Source: a virus (taxonomy: Duplodnaviria > Caudoviricetes). Taken from it: 64,000 nucleotides of DNA. How positions within the stretch are numbered: the first letter of the stretch is position 1; every line of letters begins with the position of its first letter. The notes under the pieces were generated by a model, which saw only the letters and a program-made list of their open reading frames with translations, was not told the origin of the DNA and did no database searches. Both the position numbers and the translations under genes were made by a program. Where the stretch lies: IMG/VR virus record IMGVR_UViG_3300014204_000111, positions 32,001-96,000 of that record. The stretch is one strand, 5' to 3'. This document shows positions 45,170-64,000 of the stretch, piece after piece.

Positions 45170-46049
45170 GTTTTTGGAAAGATGACGCCATAGAAGAGTG
45201 GAAATTTGTTAATCTTATTTGGGAACAAGTACGAGCTGGTATACACAGAAGATTTATAATGAGAATTAATGTACTTGATTATACATATTCTAAATGGTGG
45301 GATGAATTGATTAAATATTCAGAGGAAATCTTTAAGTAAATTATATGGATAAATATATAAGAACAACATTTTATTCTCGTCATCATTTTATTAGCAATAT
45401 ATTAATTAATTATCGTTGGAATTTTACGTTTACAATTAAATGGAATATGAGAAGAATATTATATCTTAGAAACAAATCTCCGCAGCATCTTTTTGGTTTG
45501 CATAATATTTGGAGACAATTAAAATATAATGGTTTGAGGTAACTATAGATGAGGTTCTTAAGATACATAAGTGTAAAAAAGATTATAATAAAAAAGATAA
45601 GAGCTATAAAAATATGATGAATAGATATTATATAGAAGATAGGCCGTTTTATCTAAATCTATTTGGTCATTGGAGAATATCGTTTCAAGCATATATTTGT
45701 ATAGGATTAAAGACTAATAGTAAATATAGATTTTTACCGATGTATAATGCTAAAAAAAGTTTAAAGGAAAAATGGAGTTTATTACGCAAAGATTACATAA
45801 ATTAAGTTTTGTAAGAAAAATTAGATTATATATAAGGTGTCTACGTATAAATTGTTGGAGCTTGTTTACGTTAACTGCTTGTTTAAACAAGATGAAATCT
45901 AAATGACAGTAGGCCCAACTAAATGGAAATTTCTTATTTACATATTTTTTTGCATAAGAACACCGTATATTTCACCTTGTGTTATGAAAATGAACCTTAC
46001 TGATGCATGGGTACTTAGGAAGAGATAACCTAAATTTTACCAGATATTT

Positions 46050-46078
46050 GTTTCGTCGCTCTTCACCAGGGGTATAAT
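46050..46078 (+). promoter_or_regulatory. Phage promoter firing antisense into HNH gene
   Basis: GTTTCG-N14-GGGTATAAT. Confidence 0.6.
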
Positions 46079-46617
46079 TAAAGATTAAGTAGTTTTTTCA
46101 TTTCGTCTATTGTATCATTGAAGTTAGGAAAGTTTCTATTACCATAGATAGCGTGCCAAGTTTCGTGGCAATTGGAGCATAATACAACACATTTACTGGC
46201 TTCTTCTATAATTCTTTCTTTTTTACAATTTCTTAAAGTTGAAATACCGTAATCTTTATCATTATAATCGAGATGATGGAATATTAAGGCTAAAGAATTA
46301 TTATATCCACATAAACAGCATTTAATTTTGAGAGTTCTAACAAATTCGGTATTAGTTTTGCAAGTTTCACTAAAACATTTTTTACATCTCGAAGCGTAAC
46401 CATCATAATGCGTTATGTCTGTATAAAACTCTATTTTATTTTTAGTTTCTTTACATTGAGAACAGGTTTTATATGATAAATTTTTATCTTGTTTTGATTT
46501 TCCTCTACGAAGTGCTGCTGATTTTTGACTAGCGAATAATAATTGTGCTCTACCTTCTGGAGTACTTATGCGTTTTCTTGCTTTGTCTCTTAGTTTTTGT
46601 TTTGTTTCTTCCGTCAT
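46078..46617 (-). CDS. HNH homing endonuclease with Zn finger
   Basis: CSQC...CKKC; CCLCG, FHHLD, LCSNCHETWH. Confidence 0.88.
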   Translation of the reverse strand: MTEETKQKLRDKARKRISTPEGRAQLLFASQKSAALRRGKSKQDKNLSYKTCSQCKETKNKIEFYTDITHYDGYASRCKKCFSETCKTNTEFVRTLKIKCCLCGYNNSLALIFHHLDYNDKDYGISTLRNCKKERIIEEASKCVVLCSNCHETWHAIYGNRNFPNFNDTIDEMKKLLNL

Positions 46618-46639
46618 TGTTTTGTCCTAAAATAAAATT

Positions 46640-46705
46640 GCCCCAGCGGACAGCCTGACGAAGGGCGAACTGAGGCATTCTACAATTGGATTTCGTCATT
46701 GTCCA
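46640..46705 (-). ncRNA. Pseudoknotted leader RNA of HNH gene (copy B)
   Basis: TGGACA/TGTCCG, TGACGAA/TTCGTCA, GCCTCAG/CTGGGGC. Confidence 0.75.
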
Positions 46706-46736
46706 GTTTATTTTACCCATATTTAACTGAAAAGAT

Positions 46737-46765
46737 GTTTGAGCATCAGTAATATTGGGAATAAT
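46737..46765 (+). promoter_or_regulatory. Phage promoter (SigB-like)
   Basis: GTTTGA-N14-GGGAATAAT. Confidence 0.65.
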
Positions 46766-46819
46766 ACATTGAACAGGAAATCCCGTCTATATCGTAAAAT
46801 TATTTAGGTTGGTGTTAAA

Positions 46820-47182
46820 ATGGCAAAATTTCGTGATGCTAATGGAAACATTGTTGAAGGCGTAGCAATTAACGAAGCATCGGATAAGAGGATTCAAGCA
46901 AAGTTGGCTTGTGGTCTATCACCTCGTGGGCGCTTAATGAAGATTCCGGCGGATGATAATCAGGTTGTCCTTTTCAATGCTTATTCAGAGGCTCTTGAGT
47001 CTTTGATTAGTTCCGAGGATGCTCTAACTGTATTGGGCAAGACTACAATTAATATGCTTAGGACTGCTAAAGATAACCTATCAAAAGGTGTCAATGCATA
47101 TCAACGCATGAAGAGTAATGGTCTTACTCTTGCTGATTTTGCTAAGCCTGCTCCTGTGGTAGAAACTTCCGAAGTAGGGTAA
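46820..47182 (+). CDS. Hypothetical protein
   Basis: 120-aa ORF with its own promoter. Confidence 0.65.
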   Translation: MAKFRDANGNIVEGVAINEASDKRIQAKLACGLSPRGRLMKIPADDNQVVLFNAYSEALESLISSEDALTVLGKTTINMLRTAKDNLSKGVNAYQRMKSNGLTLADFAKPAPVVETSEVG

Positions 47183-47190
47183 ATTAAATA

Positions 47191-47525
47191 ACTACGTCTT
47201 AATTGAAAGGTTAAGAATATCGCACAGGGCAGCCTGGGGTGGTAAAATAGCTTAGAGAAGTTAGATGCCGCCAAGAGTGTTACTTGGCGGTTTTTGCTCC
47301 TGTGTTTAGGAACCTGCGAAAGTGGGTAAAATAAGACTAACAGCACCCAGAAGGCTTAGTTAGTGTCTTGTAACGGACAACTATCCTAAGTGCTTAGGAA
47401 AGTTTCCCATACTAAATGCCGACCACCTGGGTCTTTTATCTCGATATATCTCAGAAATTCTGCTATGGTTGTTAACCCTCTTATAAGAGGGCAGAGTGGA
47501 TTGTAAATTATCGAGTTTTCGTAGT
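47191..47525 (+). ncRNA. Large structured RNA of unknown class
   Basis: Many helices, two GAAA tetraloops, long-range pseudoknot, paired ends; no long + strand ORF. Confidence 0.6.
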
Positions 47526-47595
47526 CTCTTAGTTTAGCAGCAGAAACATTGCCTTGTCACGGCAAAGATAGCGAGGGCAGCACTCGTAGGGACTG
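47523..47595 (+). tRNA. tRNA-Asp(GTC), atypical T loop
   Basis: ttgcc-ttGTCac-ggcaa; acceptor AGTCTCT/AGGGACT. Confidence 0.8.
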
Positions 47596-47649
47596 TTTTA
47601 TTTTTAAAATTTGTTCATTGAAAATTGTTTGCAAATTATTAATAACAAT

Positions 47650-47929
47650 GCCCAGGTGGTGAAATTGGCAAACACAAGGGACTTACATAAAATTGAGCGT
47701 ATATAAAGGAATTTATATATGGATGTCGCCTAATTCGGTGAAACCTAAGTCAAAAGATATGGCAATACCGAGCCAAACTCTAATAAGAGAAGTGTGTAGA
47801 GACTATACAGCGACCATCCAGAACGGATGAAGATAGAGTCCAGACCCCAAACTTAACAGGTAGAGAAATCTATGGTGGTATGAAAATCCCTCGGCTTCGG
47901 TCTTACGGGTTCGATTCCCGTCCTGGGCA
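47650..47929 (+). tRNA. tRNA-Leu(TAA) interrupted by group I intron
   Basis: Exons 47650-47684 and 47883-47929 join to aggga-ctTAAaa-tccct. Confidence 0.9.
47685..47882 (+). mobile_element. Group I intron (198 nt, no ORF)
   Basis: Inserted after U34, ends in G; core AATTCGGTGAAACC, GTAGAGACTA, AAGATAGAGTCC. Confidence 0.9.
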
Positions 47930-48860
47930 TTTATTTTAAATTAGGAGATAATTATGGAGAAATCTTGTTGGTGGATAGAAGGTGGATTATGTTATTTAGA
48001 GCATAATCGTAGAAATACTACAGATGGACGTTCATGTGTTAAATGTAATGGTGTATGTAAGGGTTATATTTCTAAAAGAGAATTTCTTTCACAGTTTATT
48101 CCAAGTGATAAATTGATAATTATGAGCGAGGAAAGTAATATAAATGAAAATTCAATTGATTGTTTATGAAATTTTTGCATGTAATAGTCGTAGAATATTT
48201 CCAAGATTTCCATCTATTCCTCTTGGTGACAAAGTAGATTGTATAAAATTTATGATGATTTCTCATAATAATGTGGTTCCTTTATCAAAAATATGGAAAG
48301 CAACAAAGAGAAAAGAAGGTACACAATAAATGGATGTTAAATTAATTGCTCTTATTATTACGGCTATGGCAGACCATTATTTAGGATATGAATTTGATAT
48401 ACGTAACTTTTACCTTAAATATCATAAATCTATGAATCTTTGCTCAGGTAATAATTTAACTCATATTTGGTCACAGCTTGAACATAGAAGTATAAATTAT
48501 AAGCGGAGTGTAGAATGAAATTTTTATTTCCCAGGTTTATTGCTGTTGAAATGACACTAGGAACGTGGAAAGAAATTTGCCATTTAAATTTCTTTGATAA
48601 AAAATGTATGGCTTTAAATTATGTTTCAGGAACAACATTTTTATCTATGACAAGAATGTTAGAAGAGCTAAAAAAGCTTCTATAACACTGGAGAATACAA
48701 AGAAATGTATAGTATATTATGGTATATAAAATCTTCTATCTATATTAAGATAAAACGAGAATCAGGAATATCTCCTTCTTCTTTATCTCTTTACTGGAGA
48801 GTGTTATGTTTACTGAAAGGTGTTAATGTTTCCATAAATCTATAGCATATAAAATATCAA

Positions 48861-48935
48861 GGATGGTTATCACTCTGAGAGCGAGACAAGCTGTTAACTT
48901 GTTATAGGATAGTTTGATTCTATCACCATCCGCCA
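48861..48935 (+). tRNA. tRNA-Asn(GTT)
   Basis: acaag-ctGTTaa-cttgt, GCCA end. Confidence 0.85.
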
Positions 48936-48946
48936 TTTTTTTATGC

Positions 48947-49018
48947 GCCCTTAAAGCGTAGATAGCGACGCGGGACTCCTGTAAAGTTCAGAGAATTGTG
49001 CAAGTCAATTTGGGGGCT
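48947..49018 (+). tRNA. tRNA-Thr(TGT)
   Basis: ggact-ccTGTaa-agttc; acceptor begins GCC. Confidence 0.75.
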
Positions 49019-50325
49019 TTTGAACTCTAAATAAGGTAATAAAATGATGTTTTTTATTAAATTAATCAGTCTTAAAATTAGAGATTACAGAACATTTGGT
49101 TTAGAATTTAATGATTATTATCCTTATTATTGTTTGCGTAAACCATTTTTTAATCATGCATTATCAGTTTATTTTGACATCTTTATTAGGTCGATAAAAT
49201 CATGACATTATTTTTGCATTTAATTAGCACTATTTTACATATGAAGAAATTCAATCCTTATCGTAAATTTAATTATAATATAAGAGAGTGGAGAGTATTA
49301 TATCCTAAGCTTATATTTAATAATAAATATAAGAGCAGATATCCTCTAAAATTAAGTGATGTTCTTAGATGTATGAAAAATGAGAAGAAAAGTGTGTCTA
49401 GAAATAGAGCGTTTAAATGAAAATACGAATAATAGCTTTTATGATTAATAGGTTGTTCTGGAAAAAATATTTTAATATAACTCCTGAAGAAAAATTTCTT
49501 TCTCAGACTCAGTGTGGGATGGTTAATCCATTATCAACATTATGGAGATATTTAAAAAAGTGAAGATACAATTAATAGCATTTAAAATTATGTTGTTACA
49601 TCATGTTAAATCAAATAGGGGATTTAGCTTAACATTCTTTGATTTAAAGAAGATTAACCAAGAGTTAGACCATCGTTCAATGGGAATGAGAACAATTAAG
49701 TCTTTGTCTCTTTATTGGGGAGAAATTAAGTGCAAGAACTTTTATTCTTATAGTGTGCAAATATGATTTTTAAACTAATTGCTACGGTTATTTTATTAAG
49801 AACTTATCATTCACAACATCTTTCTCTTAGAGAGCATTATAAGGCTTATACTATTTTTATGTCTACAGATTTAGAATTACCATTGTCTGAACTACTTAAT
49901 CGTTTAAAAAGATGTCTGAGATAAATCGTTATAAGGAATCAATTAAATGAGATTGAAATTAATTGCTGTGATAATGGGTTTAATGTATATGGATAGATTG
50001 AAAGTTTATCGTAATGACTTATATAATCTTAGTAAAAATCCGGATATAAGTTTTTCTAGTGGCTTAGTAAACGTTTGGAAAATAATAAAGGAAGAGAGAA
50101 AGAGTAAAAGATGAAATTTAGATTAATTATTTTAATAATATGTATAATGTCTACACACCAAGGTAATAATATACATAAAATATTTGATTTATACGATATA
50201 TATGACTTAAGTAAAAATTCAAATTTCACTTTTATTAATAGCTTATCAAATATTTGGGAAGAAGTTAAATTATCAGGTGTTTGGGAAATTTAAACTAATC
50301 TCTATAGGTGTATGTGCGTTTCTCT

Positions 50326-50353
50326 GTTTAAAACCTCCTAGAACGGGTATAAT
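50326..50353 (+). promoter_or_regulatory. Phage promoter (SigB-like)
   Basis: GTTTAA-N13-GGGTATAAT, 7 nt before tRNA-Gly. Confidence 0.75.
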
Positions 50354-50360
50354 GAGTTAT

Positions 50361-50435
50361 GCGGGTATGATGTCAATGTCAGCATGGGGCGCTTCCAACG
50401 CCTTCGTCAGAGTTAGAGCCTCTGTATCCGCTCCA
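50361..50435 (+). tRNA. tRNA-Gly(TCC)
   Basis: gggcg-ctTCCaa-cgcct, TCCA end. Confidence 0.88.
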
Positions 50436-50448
50436 ATTTAGAGTTTAC

Positions 50449-50631
50449 GGGAGAGGTCTATAAGTCTCATTTTGAGGTATCAATTTTATACTCAATGAGT
50501 GTCACTCTTATAGATATGGTAAGTCCTACGGGCATCAATTTGGTGTAATGAGCACGCTCCCACAATTTGAAATACCTAAGATGCCTCCTGTGAGTTCCGT
50601 GGGATGGAGATGAGGTATGCCTTAACGGAAC
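50449..50631 (+). ncRNA. Candidate structured RNA(s) between tRNA-Gly and tRNA-Ala
   Basis: Closed multistem 50449-50561 plus pseudoknot 50572-50631. Confidence 0.45.
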
Positions 50632-50701
50632 CATAATGAGTATAACAAGAATTATACATAGGCTTTTTAGTTTGAAATTAAATATTTAAGGTAGTAAATA
50701 T

Positions 50702-50776
50702 GGGCGATTAGTGCTAATGGTAAAACATCTGCCCTGCAAGCAGAAATTATCAGTTCGACTCTGATATTGTCCACCA
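50702..50776 (+). tRNA. tRNA-Ala(TGC)
   Basis: tctgc-ccTGCaa-gcaga; G3:U70; ACCA. Confidence 0.9.
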
Positions 50777-51015
50777 ATTTAATAATATGGATATACAAAT
50801 AGTAAGAAAAATGATATGTTATAAAGCATCTTATTTATGGAATAGAGATTTTGATAAATATATAAGGACTTATTATGAGGATGGTAACTTTTATAGCGAA
50901 GGACATATGGGGTATTCTGAATCAATAAAAAAGACTTTTCGTAATTTAAAGATGGGAAGAGCAGCAATTAAGAGAAAAGAAATTTTTCCTATTTGGTATT
51001 ATGGATTTAAAAAAT

Positions 51016-51107
51016 GGAAGAGGAACCATACAAGCGCGCTGGCTTCGCCTTGAAAGCGAAAGGGACGTGTAAAAGCGTTTGGGGAGCGTGACCTCTCTCT
51101 TCCGCCA
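51016..51107 (+). tRNA. tRNA-Ser(TGA)
   Basis: ttcgc-ctTGAaa-gcgaa, variable arm, GCCA. Confidence 0.85.
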
Positions 51108-51560
51108 TTTATTTTAGGATAAACAATGAAGATAACAGACCCTAAATATGACCCAAGCAATGCCTTACATAGTGCATTCTTTGAACAACTGGAACTTTGA
51201 ACAACTGGAAGAGTTATGCCAAAATAATCCTGGTATAGAATATAGGTATGATTGGACAAGGGAGATTGGAACTGATGTTTGGTATCCCGTATTTTTAGGT
51301 ATGTCTGTGCGTATAAAGTTAAAGAGATATCCAGAAAATGCTGATTTGGAAATATAAATGATTAATAATAAAGAGGTATATAATTATGGAAGTGATTGTA
51401 GTTAGACAAAGAGACCAAGAAACTCTTGAAGAGCAAGATGTAAGAGTTTTTGTCTCTTCAGATGAAGCACAAGCAGTTTGCAATAAACTAAATGTTGAGT
51501 ATGAAGTTATTATTTTGGAAGAATTAATTTGTGGTGATTTTGAAAAAATTAGGAAAGAAT

Positions 51561-51635
51561 GACCTTATCGTATAGTGGTAATTACGATTCTCTGCAAAAG
51601 AATAGACAGTAGTTCGATTCTACTTTTGGTCTCCA
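51561..51635 (+). tRNA. tRNA-Cys(GCA)
   Basis: attct-ctGCAaa-agaat, U73, CCA. Confidence 0.85.
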
Positions 51636-51639
51636 ATAA

Positions 51640-51713
51640 TGGCCTGTAGTTTAATGGTAAAACTTCTGCTTTACACGCAGATGTTGGGGATTCGATTTCC
51701 TTCGGGCCAACCA
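51640..51713 (+). tRNA. tRNA-Val(TAC)
   Basis: tctgc-ttTACac-gcaga, ACCA. Confidence 0.88.
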
Positions 51714-51744
51714 TTTTAAATTTGTTGATTCCCGAACTATTTAT

Positions 51745-51831
51745 GGGAGAGCGTTGGAGTTAGAGAGCCAAGACAGACTGTAAATCTGTTCCCTTCGGGG
51801 TGAGTAGGTGCGAATCCTACCTCTCCCACCA
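51745..51831 (+). tRNA. tRNA-Tyr(GTA)
   Basis: acaga-ctGTAaa-tctgt, variable arm, ACCA. Confidence 0.9.
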
Positions 51832-51846
51832 TAAAGAGGTTTTATT

Positions 51847-52991
51847 ATGAATAGTTTTTTAAGTTTAATTGTATATTATTTTCGTATAAATGGATGGTTT
51901 CGTGGGGTTGATATTAAAGAAAAATTAGAATGGGTTTCATTTAAAAGAGTAAGACAACATCACAAAGCGCTTTTTTCCTCTTTATCTGAATGTTTAAATT
52001 ATCAGAAGAGAAAATAAATGTCTTTAAAAAGAATTTTTGATTGTGCTTTACTATGGTTTTTTAATGCAAGTGTTGGAGTAGAATATGAAGATATAGATGA
52101 AAAACAATATCTTCTTAAACATTTAAGAATGGCGCATATTGTTGAGCCTCTTACTGAATTATTAGTGTTAGCTAAGTTTAAGGAAGATTGTATTGAAAAA
52201 TAATCTTGAAAATGTTCTTTTATTGGCTTATAATTATTTTGTTTGGGGAGGAGTTATTAGTGATGATTGGCCTATGAAAAACAAATTATACTGGGTTAAA
52301 AATGAAGTATTAAAGGAGCTTCATTCTTTATCTTGGTATTTAGATTGGATTAAAAATCACATTAAGGAATTTTCAGAGTTATAAATATTAATGGTGGTTC
52401 GTCTAATTGGTAGCTGACCTTACCCTTTGAAGGTAAAGATGGGAGTTCGAGTCTCTCACCACCAGTTTTTTAAAATACTAATATGCCCAATAATGGTGCA
52501 ATTTATGAATATAATAAAGAGAATTAGAGATATAATTATAAGTAAAGCTAGGAATACTTTGATTGGACAAAATTTTGCATTGCTTCATTTTATCTCTTTA
52601 TCTTCTATGTTACATATTATCAAGGCAAATAAATGATATTCACACAATTAGTTTGTTTAAAAATGTTCCACAAATCTCAAAAATACGAAATACCTTTCGT
52701 AGAGGCGTATTATACTTGTAAAAGACATAGGCTTCATCATTATACATGGCAACAAAAAATAAAAGAATCTTGGAATATACTGTATAGACAAGCAATTCAT
52801 AGGAACAAATTATGTTAAAACAATTTCTTAGGTTGTGTGTCGTTACAATATTTAATCATAGATATGGTGGACGTTTACAATACAACAACCGACAACTTGT
52901 ATCAGTATGTTTTCGCTTTGGTAAATGTAGATTAATATTCGGGTTATCTTATTATTTAGAATCTTTGATACGATTTAGTCAAAATAAATAA
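51847..52991 (+). other. Second block of related microprotein ORFs
   Basis: 51847-52017, 52018-52203, 52193-52384, ~52492-52636, 52633-52818, 52812-52991; LSxxL-type C-terminal helix in most. Confidence 0.55.
52392..52465 (+). tRNA. tRNA-Gln(TTG)
   Basis: ttacc-ctTTGaa-ggtaa; U1-A72, G73. Confidence 0.88.
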
Positions 52992-52999
52992 AATTATAT

Positions 53000-53071
53000 G
53001 TCTCTTTAGTTTATATAGTAAAACAAGAATCTCCAAAATTTTAGAAGTCTGTGCAAGTCGGACAAGAGGCG
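53000..53071 (+). tRNA. tRNA-Trp(CCA)
   Basis: agaat-ctCCAaa-atttt; G73. Confidence 0.8.
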
Positions 53072-53099
53072 TTTGAAATTTCTCTGTGTTGGGTATAAT
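53071..53099 (+). promoter_or_regulatory. Phage promoter (SigB-like)
   Basis: GTTTGA-N14-GGGTATAAT. Confidence 0.75.
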
Positions 53100-53149
53100 A
53101 ATGTGTGCTGGTGACGGTTCATCGTCTTAAAGCTAGTGCCAGCCATTTC

Positions 53150-53220
53150 GCCCCGGTAGTTTAACAGAAGAACATAAGACCTTCAATCTTAGAGTCGGAG
53201 TGCGATTCTCCGTCGGGGTA
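53150..53220 (+). tRNA. tRNA-Glu(TTC)
   Basis: taaga-ccTTCaa-tctta. Confidence 0.8.
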
Positions 53221-53222
53221 AT

Positions 53223-53840
53223 TTACTTTTTAATTGGAATCGGTTCTTTTAAATTATGATGGACTTCCCAATGACAGTTAGGACAAACTAGCATTAAGTT
53301 AGTAGGAGAATTGACAACAGAAAGTAATTCGTTGATATCGAATTCTGGAATAGGTTTAATATGATGAATTTCAACATAATTAGAATATCCACAACAAGAA
53401 CAGACCATTGGAAGTTGCATTTTTTTAATTAATACTCTTGCTAATTCTCTTATTCTAGCATTTTTATTTTTGCTAGTAAGAACCTCTGAGATGGTTATAT
53501 CTTGTTTATTTATTATGGCTATTTTATGCGGTCTACATTCTGGACAATATTTTCTATTAGACCTGATTGGAGTATCACAAATAAAACACCTACCTTCTAA
53601 TGGACGAACACCCGTTGTTCTAGTTAAATTGGTATGAGTACCAGAACAAGATTGAGAACAAAATTTTTGTCTATTATCTGTTGCAATAAAATGTTTATTA
53701 CATTGTAAGCAATATTTATCTGGGATTGCTTTCCATAATTTATAGCAATCAGAAGAACAAAAATGATGGGTATATTTATTTGCATCTGAAGGTTTTCTTT
53801 CAAAAGTTTTTTGACATTGGGTGCAAGTGAGTTGTATCAT
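53223..53840 (-). CDS. HNH endonuclease with Cys-rich repeats
   Basis: C..C...F, FCS..C repeats; EIHHIK, NLMLVCPNCHWEVH; probable start 53840. Confidence 0.88.
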   Translation of the reverse strand: MIQLTCTQCQKTFERKPSDANKYTHHFCSSDCYKLWKAIPDKYCLQCNKHFIATDNRQKFCSQSCSGTHTNLTRTTGVRPLEGRCFICDTPIRSNRKYCPECRPHKIAIINKQDITISEVLTSKNKNARIRELARVLIKKMQLPMVCSCCGYSNYVEIHHIKPIPEFDINELLSVVNSPTNLMLVCPNCHWEVHHNLKEPIPIKK

Positions 53841-54821: not shown

Positions 54822-54827
54822 ATTTAT

Positions 54828-54904
54828 GCTCGCGTAGTTTAATTGGATAAAATTCGGAGTTGTGTCCTCCTGAGATTTCAGTTCGAATCTGAACGCTTGT
54901 ACCA
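54828..54904 (+). tRNA. Atypical or degenerate tRNA, GTG anticodon
   Basis: Canonical D and T arms, ACCA end, mismatched acceptor stem. Confidence 0.55.
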
Positions 54905-54906
54905 TT

Positions 54907-55314: not shown

Positions 55315-55692
55315 CACTAACTAATTTTTTAAATTTGATTGTATATTCTCTCTGTAAGACAGAAAATATTATGACAAATAATAGCATTGGACTTGAGGAT
55401 AAAATTATTCGAATGAAAGTAATAAATAAGAAAATGTTGACCTCTTTATCTATAAGATTGAAAGAATTAAAATATGGCTATGACAAAATATTCAGGTAAT
55501 TGAGGTCATAATATGAAATTAACTAATTTTTTAAATTTAATTCTATATTCGTTATGTTTTAATGATAAGTATTATCAAAATTCCTTAACTAGCAAAATTA
55601 CGTCGATTAAATTTTTAGATAAAAAGATACTTTGGTCTACAGAACAATCATTAAAAATGAAAAAATTGGAAAAATTAAATTATCATTAAACT

Positions 55693-55720
55693 GTTTTGAA
55701 AACGCTCTACGGGGTATAAT
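55693..55720 (+). promoter_or_regulatory. Phage promoter (SigB-like)
   Basis: GTTTTG-N13-GGGTATAAT. Confidence 0.7.
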
Positions 55721-55725
55721 TATAC

Positions 55726-55899
55726 ACCAGGAGATGCTCATAGGGTAAATGGGCGATGGAGTTTCTAAGCGGTCAAGAGGTAATAGATAGACACGAAGCG
55801 GCTTCCAGTTGTTTTGTGAACTTTTGATAGTCGGTAGAGACTCTTTGATTATCTCTGTAATCTTAAATCAAAAGAATGGTTCGAATCCTTCCCCTGGTA
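55726..55899 (+). ncRNA. 174-nt tRNA-like RNA with greatly extended anticodon arm
   Basis: ACCAGG/CCTGGT acceptor, 6-bp D stem, GGTTCGAATCC T arm. Confidence 0.65.
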
Positions 55900-56088
55900 T
55901 TTTTATGAATATATTAAAAGAATACTCATTTTTAATTACAAGAATAATGTGGTCTATTGTTTGTAATAGACATACACACCCAAGAATACGTTATTTTATG
56001 CGTGATAATCCTGCAAGTGTGCATAAAAATTGGGTTTTACTTAAAAGAATATTCTCCCAAATAATAAGGGATGTACAGGAGTATCGTG

Positions 56089-57081
56089 ATGATTAATAGA
56101 TTTCCTCATATTGCTAGATTGGGGTCAAGAGAAAGTGAAGGAGTTTTTGACTCTGATGTACAAATAACCGAAAAAATCGACGGCTCTACGTTTGCTTTTG
56201 GTAAACTTCATGGTAAAGTTCGTATGAGAACTAATTCTCAAGAGATTCAATTAGGACAACATCCTGAAATGTTTCGTAACGCTGTTATGGTTGTTCAAGA
56301 ATTGAAAGATAGACTTCCTGAAGATGTTATCTTCTATGGAGAGTATCTTCGTAAGAATCGTCACAATGCTTTAACTTATGGTCGTATCCCTAAGAACCAT
56401 ATTATGATTTTCGGTATTCTCGCTAATGGTGAATGGATTACTGATTATAATAAAATGGCTGCTTATGCTGAATCTTTTGGTTTTGAGTCTGTTCCTCTAT
56501 TATTTCAAGGAAAAGTTACATCTTTTAAAGATATTGAGCCTTTGTTAGAAGGTGAAAGTATTCTTGGTGGAAGGATGGAAGGTGTTGTTATCAAGAACTT
56601 TGCTCAAACCATGCATTATAAAGATAAAGAGCAATTGCAGTTTATCAAGTTTGTTAACGATAGTTTTAAAGAAGTCCGTCACATTTCCAAAGATGCAAAG
56701 CAAATTGGACGTTTGGGTGAAACTCTACAAACTAAAAGCAACCTAGATGGTTTGCAATTGGATTTAGATATTCTGACTCAGGCATTTGTGACGGACGCTC
56801 GTTGTCATAAAACTATTCAGCATCTTCATGAAGATGGAAAGTTAAAACTTGATTATTGTGATTTTCCAGTGTTAATGAAAGAATTGGCTTCTGATTTTAT
56901 TTCTGAAGAGAAACTTTCTTGTATTGAAGAGCTAAAGAAATTATTGGTTGGTCGTTGTGATGAAAGACTCATTGACCAATCGGCAGATAATTTGTGGAAA
57001 CAGATTTTTTCTAAGCAAGTTTGTAAAGCTCTTCAACATAAAATGACTGGTATTTATAAAGCTTGGCTGCTGGAGAGATAA
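56089..57081 (+). CDS. RNA ligase (Rnl2-like)
   Basis: TEKIDGS, FYGE, FG, VPLL, EGVVIK, KFV. Confidence 0.8.
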   Translation: MINRFPHIARLGSRESEGVFDSDVQITEKIDGSTFAFGKLHGKVRMRTNSQEIQLGQHPEMFRNAVMVVQELKDRLPEDVIFYGEYLRKNRHNALTYGRIPKNHIMIFGILANGEWITDYNKMAAYAESFGFESVPLLFQGKVTSFKDIEPLLEGESILGGRMEGVVIKNFAQTMHYKDKEQLQFIKFVNDSFKEVRHISKDAKQIGRLGETLQTKSNLDGLQLDLDILTQAFVTDARCHKTIQHLHEDGKLKLDYCDFPVLMKELASDFISEEKLSCIEELKKLLVGRCDERLIDQSADNLWKQIFSKQVCKALQHKMTGIYKAWLLER

Positions 57082-57083
57082 TT

Positions 57084-58100
57084 ATGAATATTCAAGAAAT
57101 ACAAGAGAATGCAAAAGAATATATTAAGGAAGTTATTGAGGTTCCAACAGGCCACATTTTGATTATTCAAGGTGAACACGGCCTGTTGGAATGTTTGTCT
57201 CTTTCTGATTATGGAAAAGAAAAGAATGTTAAAGCATCTTTTCTTGGATTAGAGAATGATATTAATGGCGTTATTCACGGAGAGATGTTACCATTAGAAG
57301 ATAAATGGGTAATTACTATTTCTTCTCAATATGGTTGCTCAATGGGATGTAAATTCTGTGATGTTCCTAAAGTTGGCCCAGGACGTAATGCAACAGAAAC
57401 AGATATTCTTCGTCAATTCTTTGCGGTAATGTCTCTTCATCCTGAAGTAAAGAGTTCAAGAATTAATCTACATTATGCTAGAATGGGAGAGCCTTCATTT
57501 AATCATACGAATGTAATAAAGTCAGCTTGTAAACTGTCTCTCTGGTTTAAAAAAACTAATTATCAGTTTCATCCAGTTGTTTCCACTATGATGCCTAAAA
57601 ATAATACTTATCTACGTAATTTCTTATATAATTGGATGCAGTTTAAAGAAGATAATGATGGTGAAGCGGGACTTCAATTAAGTATTAACTCTACTGATAG
57701 AGAACAAAGAAAGAATATTTTTGGTGGAACAGCATCAAATTTAGATTCAATTAGCTCTTTAGTTGAATTTTTACCTGTTTCTCGTCGAAAGATTGCTCTT
57801 AATTTTGCTCTATGTTCTGATTCTATTATTGATGCAAAAGAGTTAAAGAGGCTCTTTAGTCCTGATAAGTTTATGTGCAAAATTACACCAATGCATGAAA
57901 CAAAAGCTTGTGAAGTAAACAATCTCCATACTCCAGAAGGATATAGCTCATTTGTTTCTTATAAGCCTATTGAAGAGGCTCTAAAAGCAGAAGGGTTTGA
58001 TGTTATTGTCTTTGTTCCTTCTCTTGAGGAAGATAAAGGAAGAATTACTTGTGGTAACGCTATTCTAAGTGATGAAAGATTTAAGGAGATAAATAAATGA
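57084..58100 (+). CDS. RlmN/Cfr-like radical SAM RNA methyltransferase
   Basis: ISSQYGCSMGCKFC, MGEP, LSINS, C-terminal TCG. Confidence 0.8.
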   Translation: MNIQEIQENAKEYIKEVIEVPTGHILIIQGEHGLLECLSLSDYGKEKNVKASFLGLENDINGVIHGEMLPLEDKWVITISSQYGCSMGCKFCDVPKVGPGRNATETDILRQFFAVMSLHPEVKSSRINLHYARMGEPSFNHTNVIKSACKLSLWFKKTNYQFHPVVSTMMPKNNTYLRNFLYNWMQFKEDNDGEAGLQLSINSTDREQRKNIFGGTASNLDSISSLVEFLPVSRRKIALNFALCSDSIIDAKELKRLFSPDKFMCKITPMHETKACEVNNLHTPEGYSSFVSYKPIEEALKAEGFDVIVFVPSLEEDKGRITCGNAILSDERFKEINK

Positions 58101-58593
58101 TACCACTATGGGCTATTTGGATTGTTTGTATTAGCTTAATTTTGTTAACAGCAAGAATTTGGCTCCCTATTTTAATTGTTGTTTTTACTCTTTTTGTATC
58201 AGTGATAGCTATAATAATGCAATTGATAGGAGACGCATTTCAGTGGTGGGCTGATTTATTTAAATAATGTTAAGACAATTTATCATTAAAATAGTATATG
58301 TTGTCTATTGGAAGAATACATTGTCCCATAGAGATATACCAGGAGATATATTTTTTAGGTATAAATGTTATAAATATGCTAAAACTACGTCTGGTTTTTT
58401 TAGCGCTGCACAAACATCCTCTGGATTTAAGAAGTTAAAAAACAAGGTATTGCATGGATAAATTTTTAAAATCGATTTTTTCTATTTTTAGAAAAAATCA
58501 TAGACTATTGTTACTCTATAATTATGTAAGTTTGAAAAATTCTTTTGATGATAGGATTTTTTGGGCTAAAAGAAACAGGGATATGTGAATCCT

Positions 58594-58621
58594 GTTTAGA
58601 ATCGTGTGGGTTGGGTATAAT
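58594..58621 (+). promoter_or_regulatory. Phage promoter (SigB-like)
   Basis: GTTTAG-N13-GGGTATAAT. Confidence 0.75.
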
Positions 58622-58630
58622 ATAAAACAA

Positions 58631-58705
58631 GGGAAGATAGCTCAATTAGTAGAGTGCTAGATTGAAACTTTGGTGACATTGGTGCAATTCCATTTCTTCC
58701 CACCA
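58631..58705 (+). tRNA. tRNA-Phe(GAA)
   Basis: ctaga-ttGAAac-tttgg, ACCA. Confidence 0.85.
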
Positions 58706-58712
58706 TAATTTC

Positions 58713-58790
58713 GGGCCTATAGCTCAGTTGGTTTAGAGCAGCAAACTCATAATTTGTTGGTGGTAGGTTCGAGTCCTATTAGGCCCACCA
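58713..58790 (+). tRNA. tRNA with CAT anticodon, likely Ile2 (or elongator Met)
   Basis: GGGCCTATAGCTCAG..ctCATaa; GGGCCTA acceptor typical of Ile2. Confidence 0.88.
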
Positions 58791-59046
58791 CTTAATTTTA
58801 GGAGAAATATATGAAGAGAGAAATTTGGATGGCAAGCAAGGCGTTGAAAGGTGCGATTGAAACTCTTAATGCTTTATTTTGTTCAAGTGATAAAGAGAAA
58901 CAAATCAGCAAAAAACAAAAGAATCAATTGGTCAATTTGTTATGCGAGGACTTATCTCAAATGATGTTAGAAGATGCTTATGATATTATCAAAGAAGCTC
59001 TTAAGCAGAAGACTATTCAGACAGGTCATTAATATATCGTGGGAGA

Positions 59047-59826
59047 TTAAAGAGAGAATCTATCTTGTATATCTCTAATTGTTAGAGGTATTATTCCTGG
59101 GGAATGGTCTAGTTCCCAATGACAATTAGGACATAAGATAGTTAGGTTTTCAAGAGCATTAACTTCTGATATTTTAGCATCTTTTGGAAACGAAGAGACA
59201 GATTTGATATGGCATATTTCTACGTGCTTACCATATCCACAATTTGAACATTTCATATCTTGAACTTTGACATTAAATATAAAGAGGATAATTCTTTTAG
59301 CGTGTTCTCTAATTCTAGAAAAGACGTTTGTAGAATATTTAGACTTATGAATAACTGCCTCTAAAGTTATATCTCCAAAATCATTATTAGGTAAAGGAAT
59401 ATGTTTTGTATTTTCTCCAAAACAAGCAGGGGTAGTTGGAATTCTAGAAGAATAATATTTTTTTCTACATTTTGGACAATATTTGTTACTTCTAGGGATT
59501 GATTCTCCACATTCAATACATTGTCCTAAAGGTTGCATTCTTTTTCGTGGAGTATGAGCGTTATTATAAATTGCTCCACAAGTTTGTGAACAGAATGTGT
59601 TGGTTATTTTAGTTAAACTAGAAATTGTTCTAATAATTTCTGTGCCACATTGTTTACAATGTGTTCTTATATTTTCTTTTTGAGAAGCATCTATAAAACA
59701 TTGCATTGTACAATAGTTATTATCACCAAGGTCTTTTCGATATTTGATAAATTCAATATCGCAATGGTCACATTTGACTAGAATGGTTTTATCCGTTAGT
59801 TTTAAAGGTTTACGTGTTCTTTGCAT
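59047..59826 (-). CDS. HNH endonuclease with Cys-rich repeats (paralogue of 53223-53840)
   Basis: CSNCGY..HVEICHIK, NLTILCPNCHWELDH. Confidence 0.88.
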   Translation of the reverse strand: MQRTRKPLKLTDKTILVKCDHCDIEFIKYRKDLGDNNYCTMQCFIDASQKENIRTHCKQCGTEIIRTISSLTKITNTFCSQTCGAIYNNAHTPRKRMQPLGQCIECGESIPRSNKYCPKCRKKYYSSRIPTTPACFGENTKHIPLPNNDFGDITLEAVIHKSKYSTNVFSRIREHAKRIILFIFNVKVQDMKCSNCGYGKHVEICHIKSVSSFPKDAKISEVNALENLTILCPNCHWELDHSPGIIPLTIRDIQDRFSL

Positions 59827-59880
59827 AGTATACTACTTTACCCATTTTTTACAGGTTCAAATCGTGAATATCTGATAGTT

Positions 59881-59909
59881 GTTTGAGATGTCACTGACAA
59901 GGGTATGAT
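59881..59909 (+). promoter_or_regulatory. Phage promoter (SigB-like)
   Basis: GTTTGA-N14-GGGTATGAT. Confidence 0.7.
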
Positions 59910-59919
59910 ATTACATCAA

Positions 59920-59995
59920 CCGCAGAGGGAAGGCTCAGTTTAGCCTCGAAATTCTTATAAAATTTTATACTTTCGTGCAACTCGAAATCTGCGGA
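59920..59995 (+). tRNA. Atypical tRNA with TAT anticodon (Ile-UAU)
   Basis: CCGCAGA/TCTGCGG acceptor, aaatt-ctTATaa-aattt, tttcg-tgcaact-cgaaa. Confidence 0.7.
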
Positions 59996-60344
59996 CTTAA
60001 TTTAAATATAACCTTGAAGGAATATAATATGAGTAAAGTGGAGAACTAAAGGTTTCAATAAATAGTTAATAAACCCAGTAAGTGTTAATGATTTCTTTAA
60101 CAAACATAGTGAATTTAACAAAAATATAAGTAATAATATTATGGAGAAAATAGATAAACAATATAAACCATTGAAAGATATGATAACTAAGTCAATAAAA
60201 GAAAATCAGACACTTACTAATATGGGTTTATGAAGTTTAATTTAGGAGTATCAATGCTTATTTTATGGTTTAGTATTGGATTTATAATTGGAGTGATTGT
60301 TGGCGGAGCATTTGTTGTAGGTGTGTTAGAAGGATTTTAAATAA

Positions 60345-60429
60345 GGTAGGATATGCAAACTGGTTAAGCGGCATATCTGATAAGTATGTGGAGCAATCCG
60401 TGTTGGTTCGAATCCAACTCCTACCACCA
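60345..60429 (+). tRNA. tRNA with GAT anticodon (Ile) and long variable arm
   Basis: catat-ctGATaa-gtatg; GGA-GCAA-TCC arm; ACCA. Confidence 0.85.
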
Positions 60430-61275
60430 TTAAATATAAAGAGAGAAAGAAATGACACTAAATCGTTTTAAAGATAAATTATTTATATGGTATTCCATGA
60501 ATTTTTCTGTAGGTTGGTGGATTTTAAAAAAAGAAAACCATAAAGGTTTATTAGATTCTAAACGAAAGTTTATAACTAGATGGGGAATGGGCTGTTATAT
60601 GCCAAAAAAATCATTAGTTATTGTTTTTCATGTTCCACGATTTAAGCCATATAAAACTAAGTTCCAAGCAGAGGAAGTTATTTCAGATTTTCTTCATGCA
60701 ATAAATAAGGATAAAGTAGGTTAATAGAATGACAAAAAGAGATTGGCTGTGGGTTCTATTTTGGTTAGGATTTTTAACTAGTGGATTAACATGGATAGCA
60801 GGATGTATCGTCTATATATACAGTGAAGAGCAAAAGACATTTGGCTTGTTGTTGTTTGGATTCTTTTAGTTAATCCTAAGAATCCAGAAGAGGTTAAGCC
60901 TGTATATGTTGAAGCAAGAGTTATTGTAAGTCCGTTTAAACTAGAGTAATAGGTTATAATAATGAAAAAAGAAGATGTTAAAAAACTTTTAGATAAGCAA
61001 ACAACATATTCTTCTGAAGAAGGCTTCCTTGTAGCAGAAGAGAGCGCGAAAGAGAGCGCTCTCTCTATGGTATTATCTTTAACGACCACAATAGAGCCTT
61101 ATTTTGATACCACTCTAGATAATGGAGTTGATATATATTACGATACTAATAACAATGAATTACAAATTCATTGTCCTCCTCTTGGTTCTTCAAATTTTTA
61201 TTGTTTTACTAATATCAATGGTAAACGTAAATTAACTAGAAACCCTTCTCATGAAGAACTGGTTGAATTTTTAAT

Positions 61276-61341
61276 GCTTCTGTAGTACAAAAGATAGTAT
61301 ATTGGTCTACGAAACCGAAGATGCAATTTCTTTCAGAAGCT
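61276..61341 (+). tRNA. Truncated tRNA-Arg(ACG)
   Basis: Perfect acceptor GCTTCTG/CAGAAGC, ttggt-ctACGaa-accga; variable/T region shortened. Confidence 0.6.
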
Positions 61342-62022
61342 CTTTATATTTTAGGAGTTAATTATGACCAAAATGTATAAATGTATTGACTGCGGAGTTG
61401 ATACACAGAAGATTGATGAATATTACATTGTTCACAATTGGGTATGGAATGAAGCAATGCCAATGACTCCAATAAATGCTATTTATATTGAGGATGGGAA
61501 AGTAAAAACAGATGTTCTTTTAAGACAAGGGAAAGGAATGCTTTGTATTGGTTGTCTTGAGAGAAGACTCAGACGTAAGTTAACTAAGAAAGATTTCCTA
61601 GATTGTCCTGTTAATACAGATAATAAAAGATGGCCTAAGAGCAAAAGATTAAGAAAGAGGATGAAGAGATGATTTCACCTTTTAGACATGAAATTGGTAG
61701 AAGTAGAATTTACAGTCAAGAGCAAAGTCCTAGAGTTTTTGAAGTTTGGATTGAATTAGAAGATGGAAGTCAATATCCTTATAGAGGTAACTACAGTAAA
61801 CCTGTTAGCAAACCATATAGAGATAGATGGCTTAAAAACGAACAAGAAGGGTATGACGGATTGAATCCTAGAAAGTTAAATTCAAAACCTAAAAGAATAT
61901 TTATTTTAGAAGTTTGGTTAGAAGTCGTCGAGGTACGTGAAATATGATTGATATACTTGTTTATCATTATTTTGATGATTCTATCTTTGTGGTAGATTTC
62001 TATCGTTAAATAAAGAGAAGTT

Positions 62023-62050
62023 GTTTGAGCCGTTTCGTTCTGGGTATAAT
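62023..62050 (+). promoter_or_regulatory. Phage promoter (SigB-like)
   Basis: GTTTGA-N13-GGGTATAAT. Confidence 0.75.
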
Positions 62051-62269
62051 AAGTCAGTGCGAAATAAATATACAGGTATAAATAAATGACATATAAAGAG
62101 GCAAGAGAAAAGCAAGATTTATTGTTTGCTACATATCCTTATCTTCCAGTTAAGATGTGGCAAAATAATAAGGGAGAATGGATTTTATCTATTGAGGAAA
62201 ACCTTGTTACATCACAGAATGTAGATTCTTATTTATATTTACAAGAAACAAAGAGTTGGGGATAAAGAA

Positions 62270-62551
62270 ATGTTAAAACTTAGATTATGGTTAGATGATG
62301 TTCGTCCTGCTCCAATCCTAGATAGTTGGATGGTAGCAAAGAATTATCAAGAGGCAATTACTTTAATTGATAAATATACGTTCTTTCTTTGCTCTTTAGA
62401 CCATGATTTAGGTGAAGAGAAAGATGGTGCTGATGTTTTACAGTATATGATAGATAATGATAAGGTTCCTGAATTGGTATTGATTCATTCTAAGAATCCT
62501 GTTGGAGTTGCAGAAATGAATAGAATGCTAAATCGTTATTGGGATAAATAA
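62270..62551 (+). CDS. Cyclic-phosphate-processing receiver-domain protein
   Basis: LWLDDVRPAP, SLDHDLG, IHSKNPVG. Confidence 0.75.
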   Translation: MLKLRLWLDDVRPAPILDSWMVAKNYQEAITLIDKYTFFLCSLDHDLGEEKDGADVLQYMIDNDKVPELVLIHSKNPVGVAEMNRMLNRYWDK

Positions 62552-62812
62552 ATGGATATTAAACAAACTCTTATTGCAATGCTTGATTTAAAAGATAAAA
62601 TAGACAAAAGAAAAGATATTTTATGTCAACGTATATCTCCGTCTATATTATATACATATCTTCTTTATAATAAAGATAAAGAGTATGCTGATTTGCTAAA
62701 TCAATTTAATCAGTTAAGAATTGATTTAGCTCATTCTTTAGAAAACTCATATGAAAGTATGGGCGATTTATTAGATTATGTAAAAAGTTCGATAGATTCT
62801 AAGTAAAGCCGT

Positions 62813-62840
62813 GTTTGAGACTCTTCATCTTGGGTATAAT
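62813..62840 (+). promoter_or_regulatory. Phage promoter (SigB-like)
   Basis: GTTTGA-N13-GGGTATAAT. Confidence 0.75.
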
Positions 62841-62845
62841 AACAT

Positions 62846-62951
62846 GCGAGACAAAACTGACGGCTATGACGCACACCGCAATCATGGTTGATAACCTAAT
62901 AAATCTATGACTTGGCTCCGTTGATAGAAATGGAGAAGTAGCGTTTCTCGT
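62846..62951 (+). ncRNA. Candidate ~105-nt structured RNA
   Basis: Starts at predicted TSS; GCGAGA/TCTCGT closing stem; two internal hairpins. Confidence 0.45.
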
Positions 62952-62961
62952 TCTATAATAT

Positions 62962-63036
62962 GTCCCCGTGGTGTAAAGAATAGCATACGACTCTTCTAAA
63001 GTCTTGGATAAGGTTTGATTCCTTACGGGGATACCA
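62962..63036 (+). tRNA. tRNA-Arg(TCT)
   Basis: gact-ctTCTaa-agtc, ACCA. Confidence 0.85.
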
Positions 63037-63068
63037 TTTTAAATCATTTTGTAAATATAAATAATTAT

Positions 63069-63148
63069 GGAAGCAAAGCTCATTTGGATTGAGCATTCGA
63101 CTTTTAATCGAAAGGTAGGTTTGGGTTCGAATCCCCCTGCTTCCACCA
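63069..63148 (+). tRNA. tRNA-Lys(TTT), enlarged variable region
   Basis: ttcga-ctTTTaa-tcgaa, ACCA. Confidence 0.8.
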
Positions 63149-63163
63149 AATTAACTATTATAT

Positions 63164-63237
63164 GGGTCGTTAATTCAACGGTAGAATAAGTGACTTTTAA
63201 TCATTCTATGAAGGTTCGATTCCTTCACGACCCACCA
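63164..63237 (+). tRNA. tRNA-Lys(TTT)
   Basis: agtga-ctTTTaa-tcatt, ACCA. Confidence 0.9.
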
Positions 63238-64000
63238 ATTTTAACTATGAAAGATACATCAAAGACAATACTTATCTATATATATTTGGCAATACATAGA
63301 TTACATACTAGATTATATAATAAACATCGTGATTATTTATATAAATTCTCAGATGTGTGGACAGAAATAAAGAATGTCAAAACTAAAGTTTCTCTTCAAA
63401 ATAGCAAAGTATATAGATGACTTATCTTGGAACTGTATGTATCAAAAAGTCTTTATGACTAAATTATCTGAGAAATGGAAACCAATAAAAGATGCTTATG
63501 CCTATTATCAAGAAAGATTAAGAGCAAATGACTAATATATTATTCCTTACTTCTTATTATATACGATGGAATATAATAAGACTAAGACGAAAATTAGATA
63601 AGACACTTAATATTTTCCAAACGTTATATCCAAGAAGAATATATCATAATTGGGAATCAATTAAAAAGGCAATAAAAATATGAAAACAAAAATTATTAAA
63701 ACTGAAGTGATTGAAACTCTTCATCATATATTTCCTAGTGGCGCAATTATTGAAGAGGTTCGTTCTTCTATTAAAAAGAAATCTCAATATAAAATTATAG
63801 ACGGTACAAAAAGAAATCAATCATATTTTTATATTGACCAAGAAGTATATAAAATGAATTATAATAACCATTATTATGATGATTTTTATAAACTATCTAT
63901 TCCTCCAGAAAAATTGATGTTATTTGATGATATTGATACTTCTAAGTTAATTAATTTTCAGATTATGCAAAATGGATTTCTTTATCCTTTTAATAGTGAT

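Follow-up and report, generated by a model that had tools for sequence, protein, structure and literature searches.

What occupies the spaces between the transfer RNA (tRNA) genes of a large phage, and whether the short open reading frames (ORFs) found there belong to a common gene family, is the question raised by positions 45345-63420 of a 64,000 nucleotide (nt) stretch of viral DNA (Duplodnaviria; Caudoviricetes). This stretch, hereafter the window, comprises bases 32001-96000 of the record IMGVR_UViG_3300014204_000111, and coordinates are window positions unless marked 'genome'. A preliminary description had proposed that more than 20 hypervariable microproteins of one expanding family are interleaved with the tRNA genes. 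All fourteen ORFs which it quoted could be located with their quoted termini, and the claim that they constitute one family could be sustained in part only. Seven of them form the core of a paralogous family with at least 26 members genome-wide, which occurs in two tandem arrays and, judging by sequence comparison, appears to have grown by tandem duplication.

Coding character of the small ORFs

Approximately 22 tRNA or tRNA-like genes, distinguished using ARAGORN, Rfam and blastn, are interleaved with small ORFs in the 45345-63420 island. Fourteen tRNAs were detected by ARAGORN, and Rfam added a further four (47523-47595, 51745-51828, 61276-61341 and 63069-63145). A Gly-like tRNA at approximately 50359-50439, which is overlapped by a spurious ORF of 54 amino acids (aa; 50277-50441), was found only through blastn comparison with the tRNA-Gly of KVP40-type phages; both it and the tRNA-Asn of array 1 (below) are atypical tRNAs. 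The tRNA at 47523-47595 is situated just upstream of a group I intron (47675-47862; Rfam, 69.8 bits), itself apparently contained within a phage tRNA gene (47650-47929). The RNA genes and three minus-strand HNH genes together make up 23 % of the island. A further 64 % is taken up by plus-strand ORFs of 35 aa or longer, with 38 non-nested plus-strand ORFs in the size range of 35 to 80 aa. The small ORFs form two tandem arrays, which differ in their guanine plus cytosine (GC) content:

48144-50293, plus strand: array 1, eleven tandem small ORFs of 46-72 aa, split once by a tRNA-Asn; GC 27 %
genome 123851-126914 (L001:2851-5914), outside the window: array 2, approximately 16 tandem basic ORFs of 46-79 aa; GC 25 %

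In array 1, a fraction of 0.90 is covered by plus-strand ORFs of 40 aa or longer. Mononucleotide shuffles, which served as the controls for ORF coverage, gave 0.11 ± 0.09 (maximum 0.43) and the minus strand gave 0.08; the values for array 2 are 0.96 versus 0.08 in shuffles. Among the ten array 1 junctions, six are ATGA or GTGA start/stop overlaps of 4 nt and one is a directly abutting stop and start. A Shine-Dalgarno (SD)-like motif at least 4 nt long is present upstream of 64 % of array 1 ORFs, 56 % of array 2 ORFs and 56 % of long genes, compared to 10 % of spurious ORFs nested within long genes. Furthermore, in the conserved blocks the second codon position is the most conserved (0.72 and 0.60) and the third (0.53 and 0.44) is the least conserved or nearly so, which indicates that it is the peptide, and not a DNA motif or signal, that is under constraint. 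The small array ORFs thus have the appearance of real, translationally coupled genes, and for the core this far exceeds chance; they are probably translated.

Three other explanations for the arrangement were considered and rejected. Recoding of stop codons to yield one long gene does not accord with the change of frame at the 4-nt overlaps, and no suppressor tRNA was found by ARAGORN. An origin of the pattern in DNA repeats is likewise not supported, as direct repeats in the arrays are weak, with the exception of a 46-nt 5' repeat in one subgroup of scattered ORFs (51847, 55311 and 55513; ORFs are named by their start positions). The conserved C-terminal codons could also not be attributed to a sigma-70 promoter, given that the spacing is inconsistent and a generic scan remained at background.

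Extent of the paralogous family

Ten of the array 1 ORFs can be aligned over an N-terminal block, a basic-aromatic position approximately 12 residues further on and a C-terminal block. The N-terminal helix carries the motif M-x-x-[KRQ]-L-I-A-x-x-I in array 1 and K-I-I-R-x-x-x-Y in array 2, while the C-terminal amphipathic helix has the motif L-S-x-hydrophobic-W-x-x-hydrophobic-K, followed by a basic tail. When each ORF was left out in turn and sought with profile hidden Markov models (HMMs) among 3438 sequences, including shuffled and reversed decoys, seven (48144, 48330, 49417, 49560, 49763, 49947 and 50111) ranked between first and fourth (E 3e-5 to 0.17), and neither decoys nor minus-strand ORFs gave matches at the HMM inclusion threshold. 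These seven constitute the core. The ORFs of array 1 are given below with their leave-one-out ranks and, for some, a dicodon score, for which the reference values are 0.88 ± 0.26 in held-out real genes and -0.44 ± 0.53 in spurious open ORFs:

48144-48329, plus strand: core member, 61 aa, isoelectric point (pI) 10.0; rank 2 of 3438, E 0.0066; SD-like GAGG upstream
48330-48518, plus strand: core member, 62 aa, start abutting the preceding stop; rank 1, E 0.0024
48515-48685, plus strand: weak member, 56 aa, ATGA overlap; aligns; rank 47; dicodon score 0.51
48705-48845, plus strand: doubtful member, 46 aa, SLSLYW motif; HMM E 4.2; dicodon score -0.16
48861-48935, plus strand: tRNA-Asn(GUU) inside array 1; ARAGORN, not reported by Rfam at E ≤ 0.1
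49044-49205, plus strand: weak member, 53 aa; rank 8, E 0.23
49202-49420, plus strand: weak member, 72 aa, net charge +15, ATGA overlap; aligns; rank 173
49417-49563, plus strand: core member, 48 aa, the shortest of the core, ATGA overlap; rank 1; modelled with AlphaFold2
49560-49766, plus strand: core member, 68 aa, GTG start in a GTGA overlap; rank 3
49763-49924, plus strand: core member, 53 aa, ATGA overlap; rank 2, E 0.0098
49947-50114, plus strand: core member, 55 aa; rank 4; 32 % identical to 50111, E 5e-8
50111-50293, plus strand: core member, 60 aa, ATGA overlap; rank 1, E 3e-5; modelled with AlphaFold2

The GTG start of 49560, which overlaps the preceding stop, was assigned by alignment with the other N-termini. 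ORF 48705, with the lowest dicodon score in array 1, has its stop 16 nt before the tRNA-Asn, and in the ORF-free 95-nt spacer 3' of this tRNA no significant structure was found (z -0.57).

The two arrays are linked by several comparisons. The array 2 member g125088 was repeatedly retrieved by the leave-one-out profiles (E ~3e-4), and a profile built from array 2 alone placed four array 1 core members among its seven best non-training matches (~1780 ORFs). Alignment of the two profiles with hhalign gave P=0.0018 over the C-terminal 16 columns. The C-terminal pattern of array 2 is G-[LI]-x-x-[IVL]-[WFL]-x-x-[LI]-K; no tRNA occurs inside this array. A C-terminal regular expression, devised after the data had been seen, occurs in 17 plus-strand small ORFs, as opposed to 2.8 in shuffles and six on the minus strand. 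Iterative HMM growth from six array 2 seeds gave no recruits, array 2 being too diverged, and all-against-all BLASTP comparison of the members joined few pairs only.

Further candidates are scattered through the tRNA island:

45345-45542, plus strand: basic 65-aa ORF with C-terminal GLHNIW, weak candidate; C-terminal regular expression, HMM E 0.97
51847-52384, plus strand: three abutting ORFs (56, 61 and 63 aa) between a tRNA-Tyr-like gene and tRNA-Gln; coverage 1.00 versus 0.08 when shuffled
52812-52991, plus strand: 59-aa ORF with weak pattern, ending before tRNA-Trp; dicodon score -0.02, HMM non-significant
54471-54584, plus strand: 37-aa ORF, the best-scoring scattered candidate; leave-one-out E 0.01-0.045
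55311-55689, plus strand: neighbouring pair of paralogs (62 and 58 aa) from the 'NFLNLI.YS' subgroup; 45 % identical, E 3e-11
63247-63420, plus strand: 57-aa ORF directly after tRNA-Lys, weak candidate; C-terminal regular expression, HMM E 0.42

ORF 54471 was retrieved repeatedly by the array 1 profiles and was the top non-training match in two leave-one-out runs. The three ORFs of 51847-52384 have dicodon scores of 0.30-0.74 and HMM E values of 0.8-2.5, and resemble the family at the level of pattern only. The 'NFLNLI.YS' subgroup comprises 51847, 55311 and 55513, and the 46-nt direct repeat common to their 5' ends is 70-85 % identical. At 45345-45542 the minus strand is also open (coverage 0.62), while 63247 is an internal ATG of the ORF 63190-63420, just past tRNA-Lys. 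Taken individually, the scattered ORFs 45345, 48705, 51847, 52812, 54471, 55311 and 63247 are not separable from decoys (E 0.1-4). Outside the window, small plus-strand ORFs at genome 105616-108260 (73616-76260 in window coordinates) show weak similarity to g125088 (E 1e-3) and include an adjacent paralog pair (107829/108048; E 2.5e-4); this region may represent a third patch of the family.

The family thus consists of the core of seven, approximately four more array 1 and 16 array 2 ORFs with the pattern, and some eight to ten plausible scattered ORFs. The proposal of constant ends around an unrelated middle is supported for the core and fits the scattered examples only weakly, and 'hypervariable' is apt only in the sense of an unalignable middle of variable length. 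Compared with shuffled AT-rich ORFs, the yardstick chosen in the preliminary description, the core scores higher and the ORFs outside it no better. That the family has expanded is borne out by the two linked tandem arrays and by demonstrable duplicates. The pairs 49947/50111 and 55311/55513, which were thought to be recent duplicates, are true paralogs, but with identities of 32 % and 45 % they are old and the term 'recent' is incorrect.

Products, relatives and transcription of the arrays

The predicted products have pI values of mostly 9.5-11, net charges of +4 to +15 and 9-26 % aromatic residues. Compared to the long genes they are depleted in acidic residues, Gly, Ala, Thr and Pro and enriched in Ile, Lys, Leu, Phe, Arg, Tyr and Trp. 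No membrane-spanning segment occurs in the members, where the maximum Kyte-Doolittle mean over 19 residues is 0.14-1.26, versus 1.74-2.99 in neighbouring transmembrane (TM) microproteins. The products are therefore not membrane-spanning, and their hydrophobic start is no membrane anchor.

An AlphaFold2 model of 50111, based on a ten-row alignment, contains three helices (predicted local distance difference test, pLDDT, 60), while that of 49417, based on 28 rows, reaches a pLDDT of 71 with helices at residues 2-19, 23-33 and 39-47. In the latter the N-terminal (pLDDT 74-89) and C-terminal (~84) helices are confident and the middle (50-61) is uncertain, in agreement with this much of the constant two-helix scaffold with a diversified insert that had been suggested. 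Complex prediction of a 49417 homodimer gave a score of 0.02, which speaks neither for nor against a dimer. The C-terminal motif bears only a superficial likeness to the recognition helix of resolvase- or AlpA-type helix-turn-helix (HTH) proteins, with no HTH family in Pfam and no profile match in the PDB.

Pfam and PHROGs scans, with ten and then 28 members, revealed no family at E ≤ 0.01 apart from one borderline match. A word-indexed search of 5.8 billion clustered proteins returned only the proteins of the phage itself. When 1.84 billion representative proteins were searched exhaustively by profile, the matches were again confined to these, apart from P0008 and P0009, which are tandem-repeat artefacts. 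A profile search of the PDB yielded a single meaningless match (E 1.3), no look-alike was present in the ESM Atlas, and Foldseek gave no match in BFVD.

The window belongs to a single virus record of 220,861 base pairs (bp) with a GC content of 31.7 %, in which ARAGORN counts 20 tRNAs. Its genes include an HK97-type portal and major head protein, as well as DnaB, SbcCD-like proteins, NAPRTase, a DNA ligase, an RNA ligase and a radical-SAM protein. No close relative occurs among 50,697 isolated phage records, and the nearest isolated-phage (INPHARED) matches of the portal, at approximately 23 % identity, are portals of Firmicutes and Arthrobacter phages, many of them of Herelleviridae type. Portal homologs at 48-60 % identity are present in metagenomes, those at 60 % (P0011) on short contigs. 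The nearest near-complete relative, IMGVR_UViG_3300037067_013225 (202,677 bp, GC 39.9 %, CheckV 91 %, portal 52 % identical), was reached with an alignment query, single-protein RNA ligase and portal scans of viral contigs having given nothing. It has a single tRNA, no match to the family and no such arrays, and there is nearly no stretch in it without ORFs of at least 100 aa; absence from related phages, which had been named as evidence against the family, is thus what was found in this relative. Its DNA ligase homolog adjoins thyX and a cluster of sugar-nucleotide/glycan type rather than a tRNA island. As the nearest complete relative has neither, the tRNA island and the microprotein arrays, which represent the most AT-rich DNA of the phage, are considered lineage-specific. 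No family member is encoded on the RNA-ligase homolog contigs L008 and L009. GC content and tRNA load shift widely within this one clade, from 31.7 % and 20 tRNAs (ARAGORN) to 39.9 % and one tRNA.

The DNA derives from a landfill metagenome (2018), which is probably the origin of the assembly. Identical low-depth short contigs from the region 45000-64000 were also observed in a groundwater metagenome (2022). As they are identical to the phage, they provide no variation usable for selection, and many spurious low-identity pieces occur besides.

The promoter-like box TGGGTAWAAT occurs more often than expected (40 matches at up to one mismatch versus 14.8), while a generic sigma-70 scan remained at background level (113 versus 103.5). 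On the plus strand, RNA genes are closely preceded by exact copies at 47323, 53090, 58612 and 62831, with another exact copy at 62041 on the same strand, and one-mismatch copies occur at 50344 and 55711. Two of these boxes flank array 1:

47323-47332, plus strand: promoter-like box TGGGTAAAAT upstream of the array 1 unit
50344-50353, plus strand: promoter-like box CGGGTATAAT just before the tRNA-Gly-like gene

Inside array 1 there is a single match, a copy with one mismatch at 49975 that falls in ORF 49947. Since array 1 has no box of its own in promoter position and lies between boxes that precede RNA genes, it is most likely co-transcribed with tRNAs, as judged from motif positions alone. 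The unit probably starts with the box at 47323, which is followed by a region of structured RNA, the tRNA at 47523 and the tRNA with the intron; ORF 47954, four small ORFs, tRNA-Asn and seven small ORFs come next, and the box at 50344 likely marks its end.

Other genes of the island include the three HNH endonuclease-like genes antisense to it (46078-46617, 53223-53861 and 59047-59826, minus strand), the latter two of which have segments of 50-60 nt in common that are 70 % identical. A 35-aa lipoprotein-like ORF (54586-54693) combines a signal peptide with an L-V-A-C lipobox, and TM peptides of 36-56 aa are encoded at 58097-58267, 60230-60340 and 60729-60869 (Kyte-Doolittle 1.7-3.0). These four are unrelated microproteins.

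Possible roles of the family

The arrays represent an orphan, lineage-specific family of an already known type, namely the expansion of small proteins in plastic regions of large phages. The hyperplastic regions of T4 contain clusters of small variable ORFans between conserved blocks (PMC2839356, PMC4122927), the T4 ORFan 55.2 offers a further analogy (PMC4396842), and the tRNA clusters of T4/T2L and T5 include ORFs of unknown function and homing endonucleases (PMC2330249). The island resembles these T4-type regions in its mixture of small variable genes with tRNAs and homing endonucleases, having 38 small plus-strand ORFs with three HNH genes on the opposite strand, and in being absent from the nearest relative. 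However, T4-type ORFans are mostly mutually unrelated and each is flanked by PeSL promoter/stem-loop elements, whereas the genes of the window are paralogous and coupled; PeSL-type flanking of each ORF was not found, good boxes in promoter positions occurring only at 47323 and 50344 on either side of array 1. The phage is furthermore not T4-like, with its portal of HK97 type. The T4 internal proteins IPI, IPII and IPIII are encoded by tandem small genes and have a conserved N-terminus of approximately ten residues, which serves in capsid targeting, and divergent bodies. The family shares with them a conserved N-terminal block and otherwise divergent bodies, but also has a conserved C-terminal helix, and no consistent prohead-protease site (L/I-x-E) follows the N-terminal block in the array alignments.

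The host-takeover module of SPO1 comprises 26 small early genes (PMC6873191, PMC10531801, PMC8892312). The resemblance lies in the dense packing of very small genes within the genome of a large virulent phage, and characterised members individually bind host proteins or RNA. The SPO1 genes differ in that they are mutually unrelated, occupy the terminal redundancy and are driven by strong early promoters of their own, and PHROGs and Pfam scans gave no sequence or profile similarity between SPO1-module proteins and the family.

The favoured reading, which has about an even chance of being correct, is that of a lineage-specific, tandem-duplicated family of small cytoplasmic proteins that would be co-transcribed with the tRNAs and serve as accessory host-interaction binders. 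The binder role is putative and is preferred because the small-gene clusters of SPO1 and T4 are analogous; the anti-defence, host-takeover or adaptor functions suggested in the preliminary description are likewise analogies with other large phages. Tandem duplication in the phage lineage would have built the family, and array 1 would share a transcript with the tRNAs and be translated by way of its SD sites and ATGA/GTGA coupling, to give cytoplasmic products of approximately 45-75 aa that are strongly basic, aromatic-rich and predicted to be all-helical. The two terminal helices may pack as a small scaffold, while the variable middle may confer on each paralog its own specificity. The proteins would then be dispensable accessory factors that bind macromolecules of the host or the phage in the manner of host-takeover or counter-defence proteins, and they would be produced simultaneously with the phage tRNAs.

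Several observations weigh against this reading. The mean dicodon scores of the arrays (0.28-0.29) are intermediate, on account of which the array genes are considered unusual in composition and possibly young. Sequence statistics fail to separate candidates from decoys beyond the core of seven, and the basic and aromatic composition is partly expected from coding sequence with 25-27 % GC alone. A predicted template modelling score (pTM) of 0.32 reflects low confidence in the tertiary fold, so that a common fold or helix packing is not established and the scaffold of the preliminary description is in this respect unsupported. Furthermore, there is no homolog outside the genome to reveal purifying selection across genomes, and none of the RNA sequencing runs searched contained the array region.

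Two rival readings stand out among the alternatives. The members could be microproteins tied to the tRNA island that bind the tRNAs or tRNA mimics encoded by the phage, or the transcripts from which these are processed. They might serve as chaperones or processing cofactors or give protection against host anticodon nucleases, different paralogs being adapted to different RNAs. This is judged unlikely. The high pI, the charge of +4 to +15, the content of aromatic residues (13-25 %) and the lack of a TM segment would suit such a role, as would the embedding of the genes among tRNAs with which they are apparently co-transcribed, the RNA ligase and radical-SAM enzyme in the neighbourhood, and a member count (~26 or more) of the same order as that of the tRNA and tRNA-like genes. 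In T4, the small tRNA-processing factor cef is encoded near the tRNA genes. However, Pfam scans detected no known RNA-binding domain and there was no structural match, AT bias can account for the composition, and array 2 is situated approximately 20 kb from the last ARAGORN tRNA. A more specific form, in which the arrays are an RNA-binding library for the unusually large set of tRNAs and tRNA mimics of the phage, the helix pair of each paralog holding the RNA and the middle selecting one species, is decidedly unlikely; if true, such a library would accompany the translation equipment of the phage or protect it from host anticodon nucleases, and would constitute an undescribed protein layer of the tRNA arms race. 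Alternatively, the ORFs might be translated spacers, in which ribosomes cover the AT-rich inter-tRNA transcript against Rho-dependent termination or RNases, or young proto-genes with little function, the peptides being of minor consequence. The intermediate coding score, a GC content of 25-27 % versus 31.7 % for the genome, the lack of homologs in protein searches, the absence from a relative which itself has no tRNA island, and the tight translational coupling of an array without its own promoter-like box are all consistent with this. Tryptophan has a single codon, which is rare in AT-rich DNA, and the conservation of peptide blocks at both ends, a Trp among their residues, with codon position 2 the most conserved, argues against mere spacers, as do a 3-kb array without a tRNA inside and a depletion of acidic residues beyond what AT bias predicts. 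This alternative is regarded as improbable.

The remaining two readings are disfavoured. Small membrane-acting proteins with an N-terminal anchor, of superinfection-exclusion, holin-like or type I toxin-like function, might be suspected from the hydrophobic N-termini and the presence in the same island of true TM microproteins (58097, 60230 and 60729) and the lipoprotein-like 54586. This is very unlikely, as the Kyte-Doolittle mean stays at or below 1.26 over every 19-residue window of the members and the N-terminal stretch is broken by charged residues. There is equally little probability that the ORFs are non-genes, open by chance or left as remnants in decay within AT-rich spacer DNA, with shared termini that derive from start-codon context and bias. 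While the lack of homologs, the intermediate dicodon score and the lack of an RNA run with the region are compatible with this notion, it does not accommodate a one-strand ORF coverage of 90-96 % at 25-27 % GC versus ~10 % in shuffles, an SD frequency equal to that of real genes, the start/stop overlaps, or a leave-one-out family signal for which decoys and minus-strand ORFs gave no matches at the inclusion threshold.

The importance of the family is potential, rather than demonstrated. New inhibitors of host machinery, like anti-defence factors, come chiefly from small phage proteins, which are systematically under-annotated; a statistically supported family of at least 26 therefore provides concrete candidates for binder and toxicity screens. 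This family arose, or diverged past recognition, within one jumbo-phage lineage, in the lineage-specific, very AT-rich DNA that also holds its tRNA island, absent from the nearest relative. It thereby offers a natural case for the study of phage gene creation, in which tandem duplication followed by rapid divergence can be set against de novo birth in tRNA spacers.

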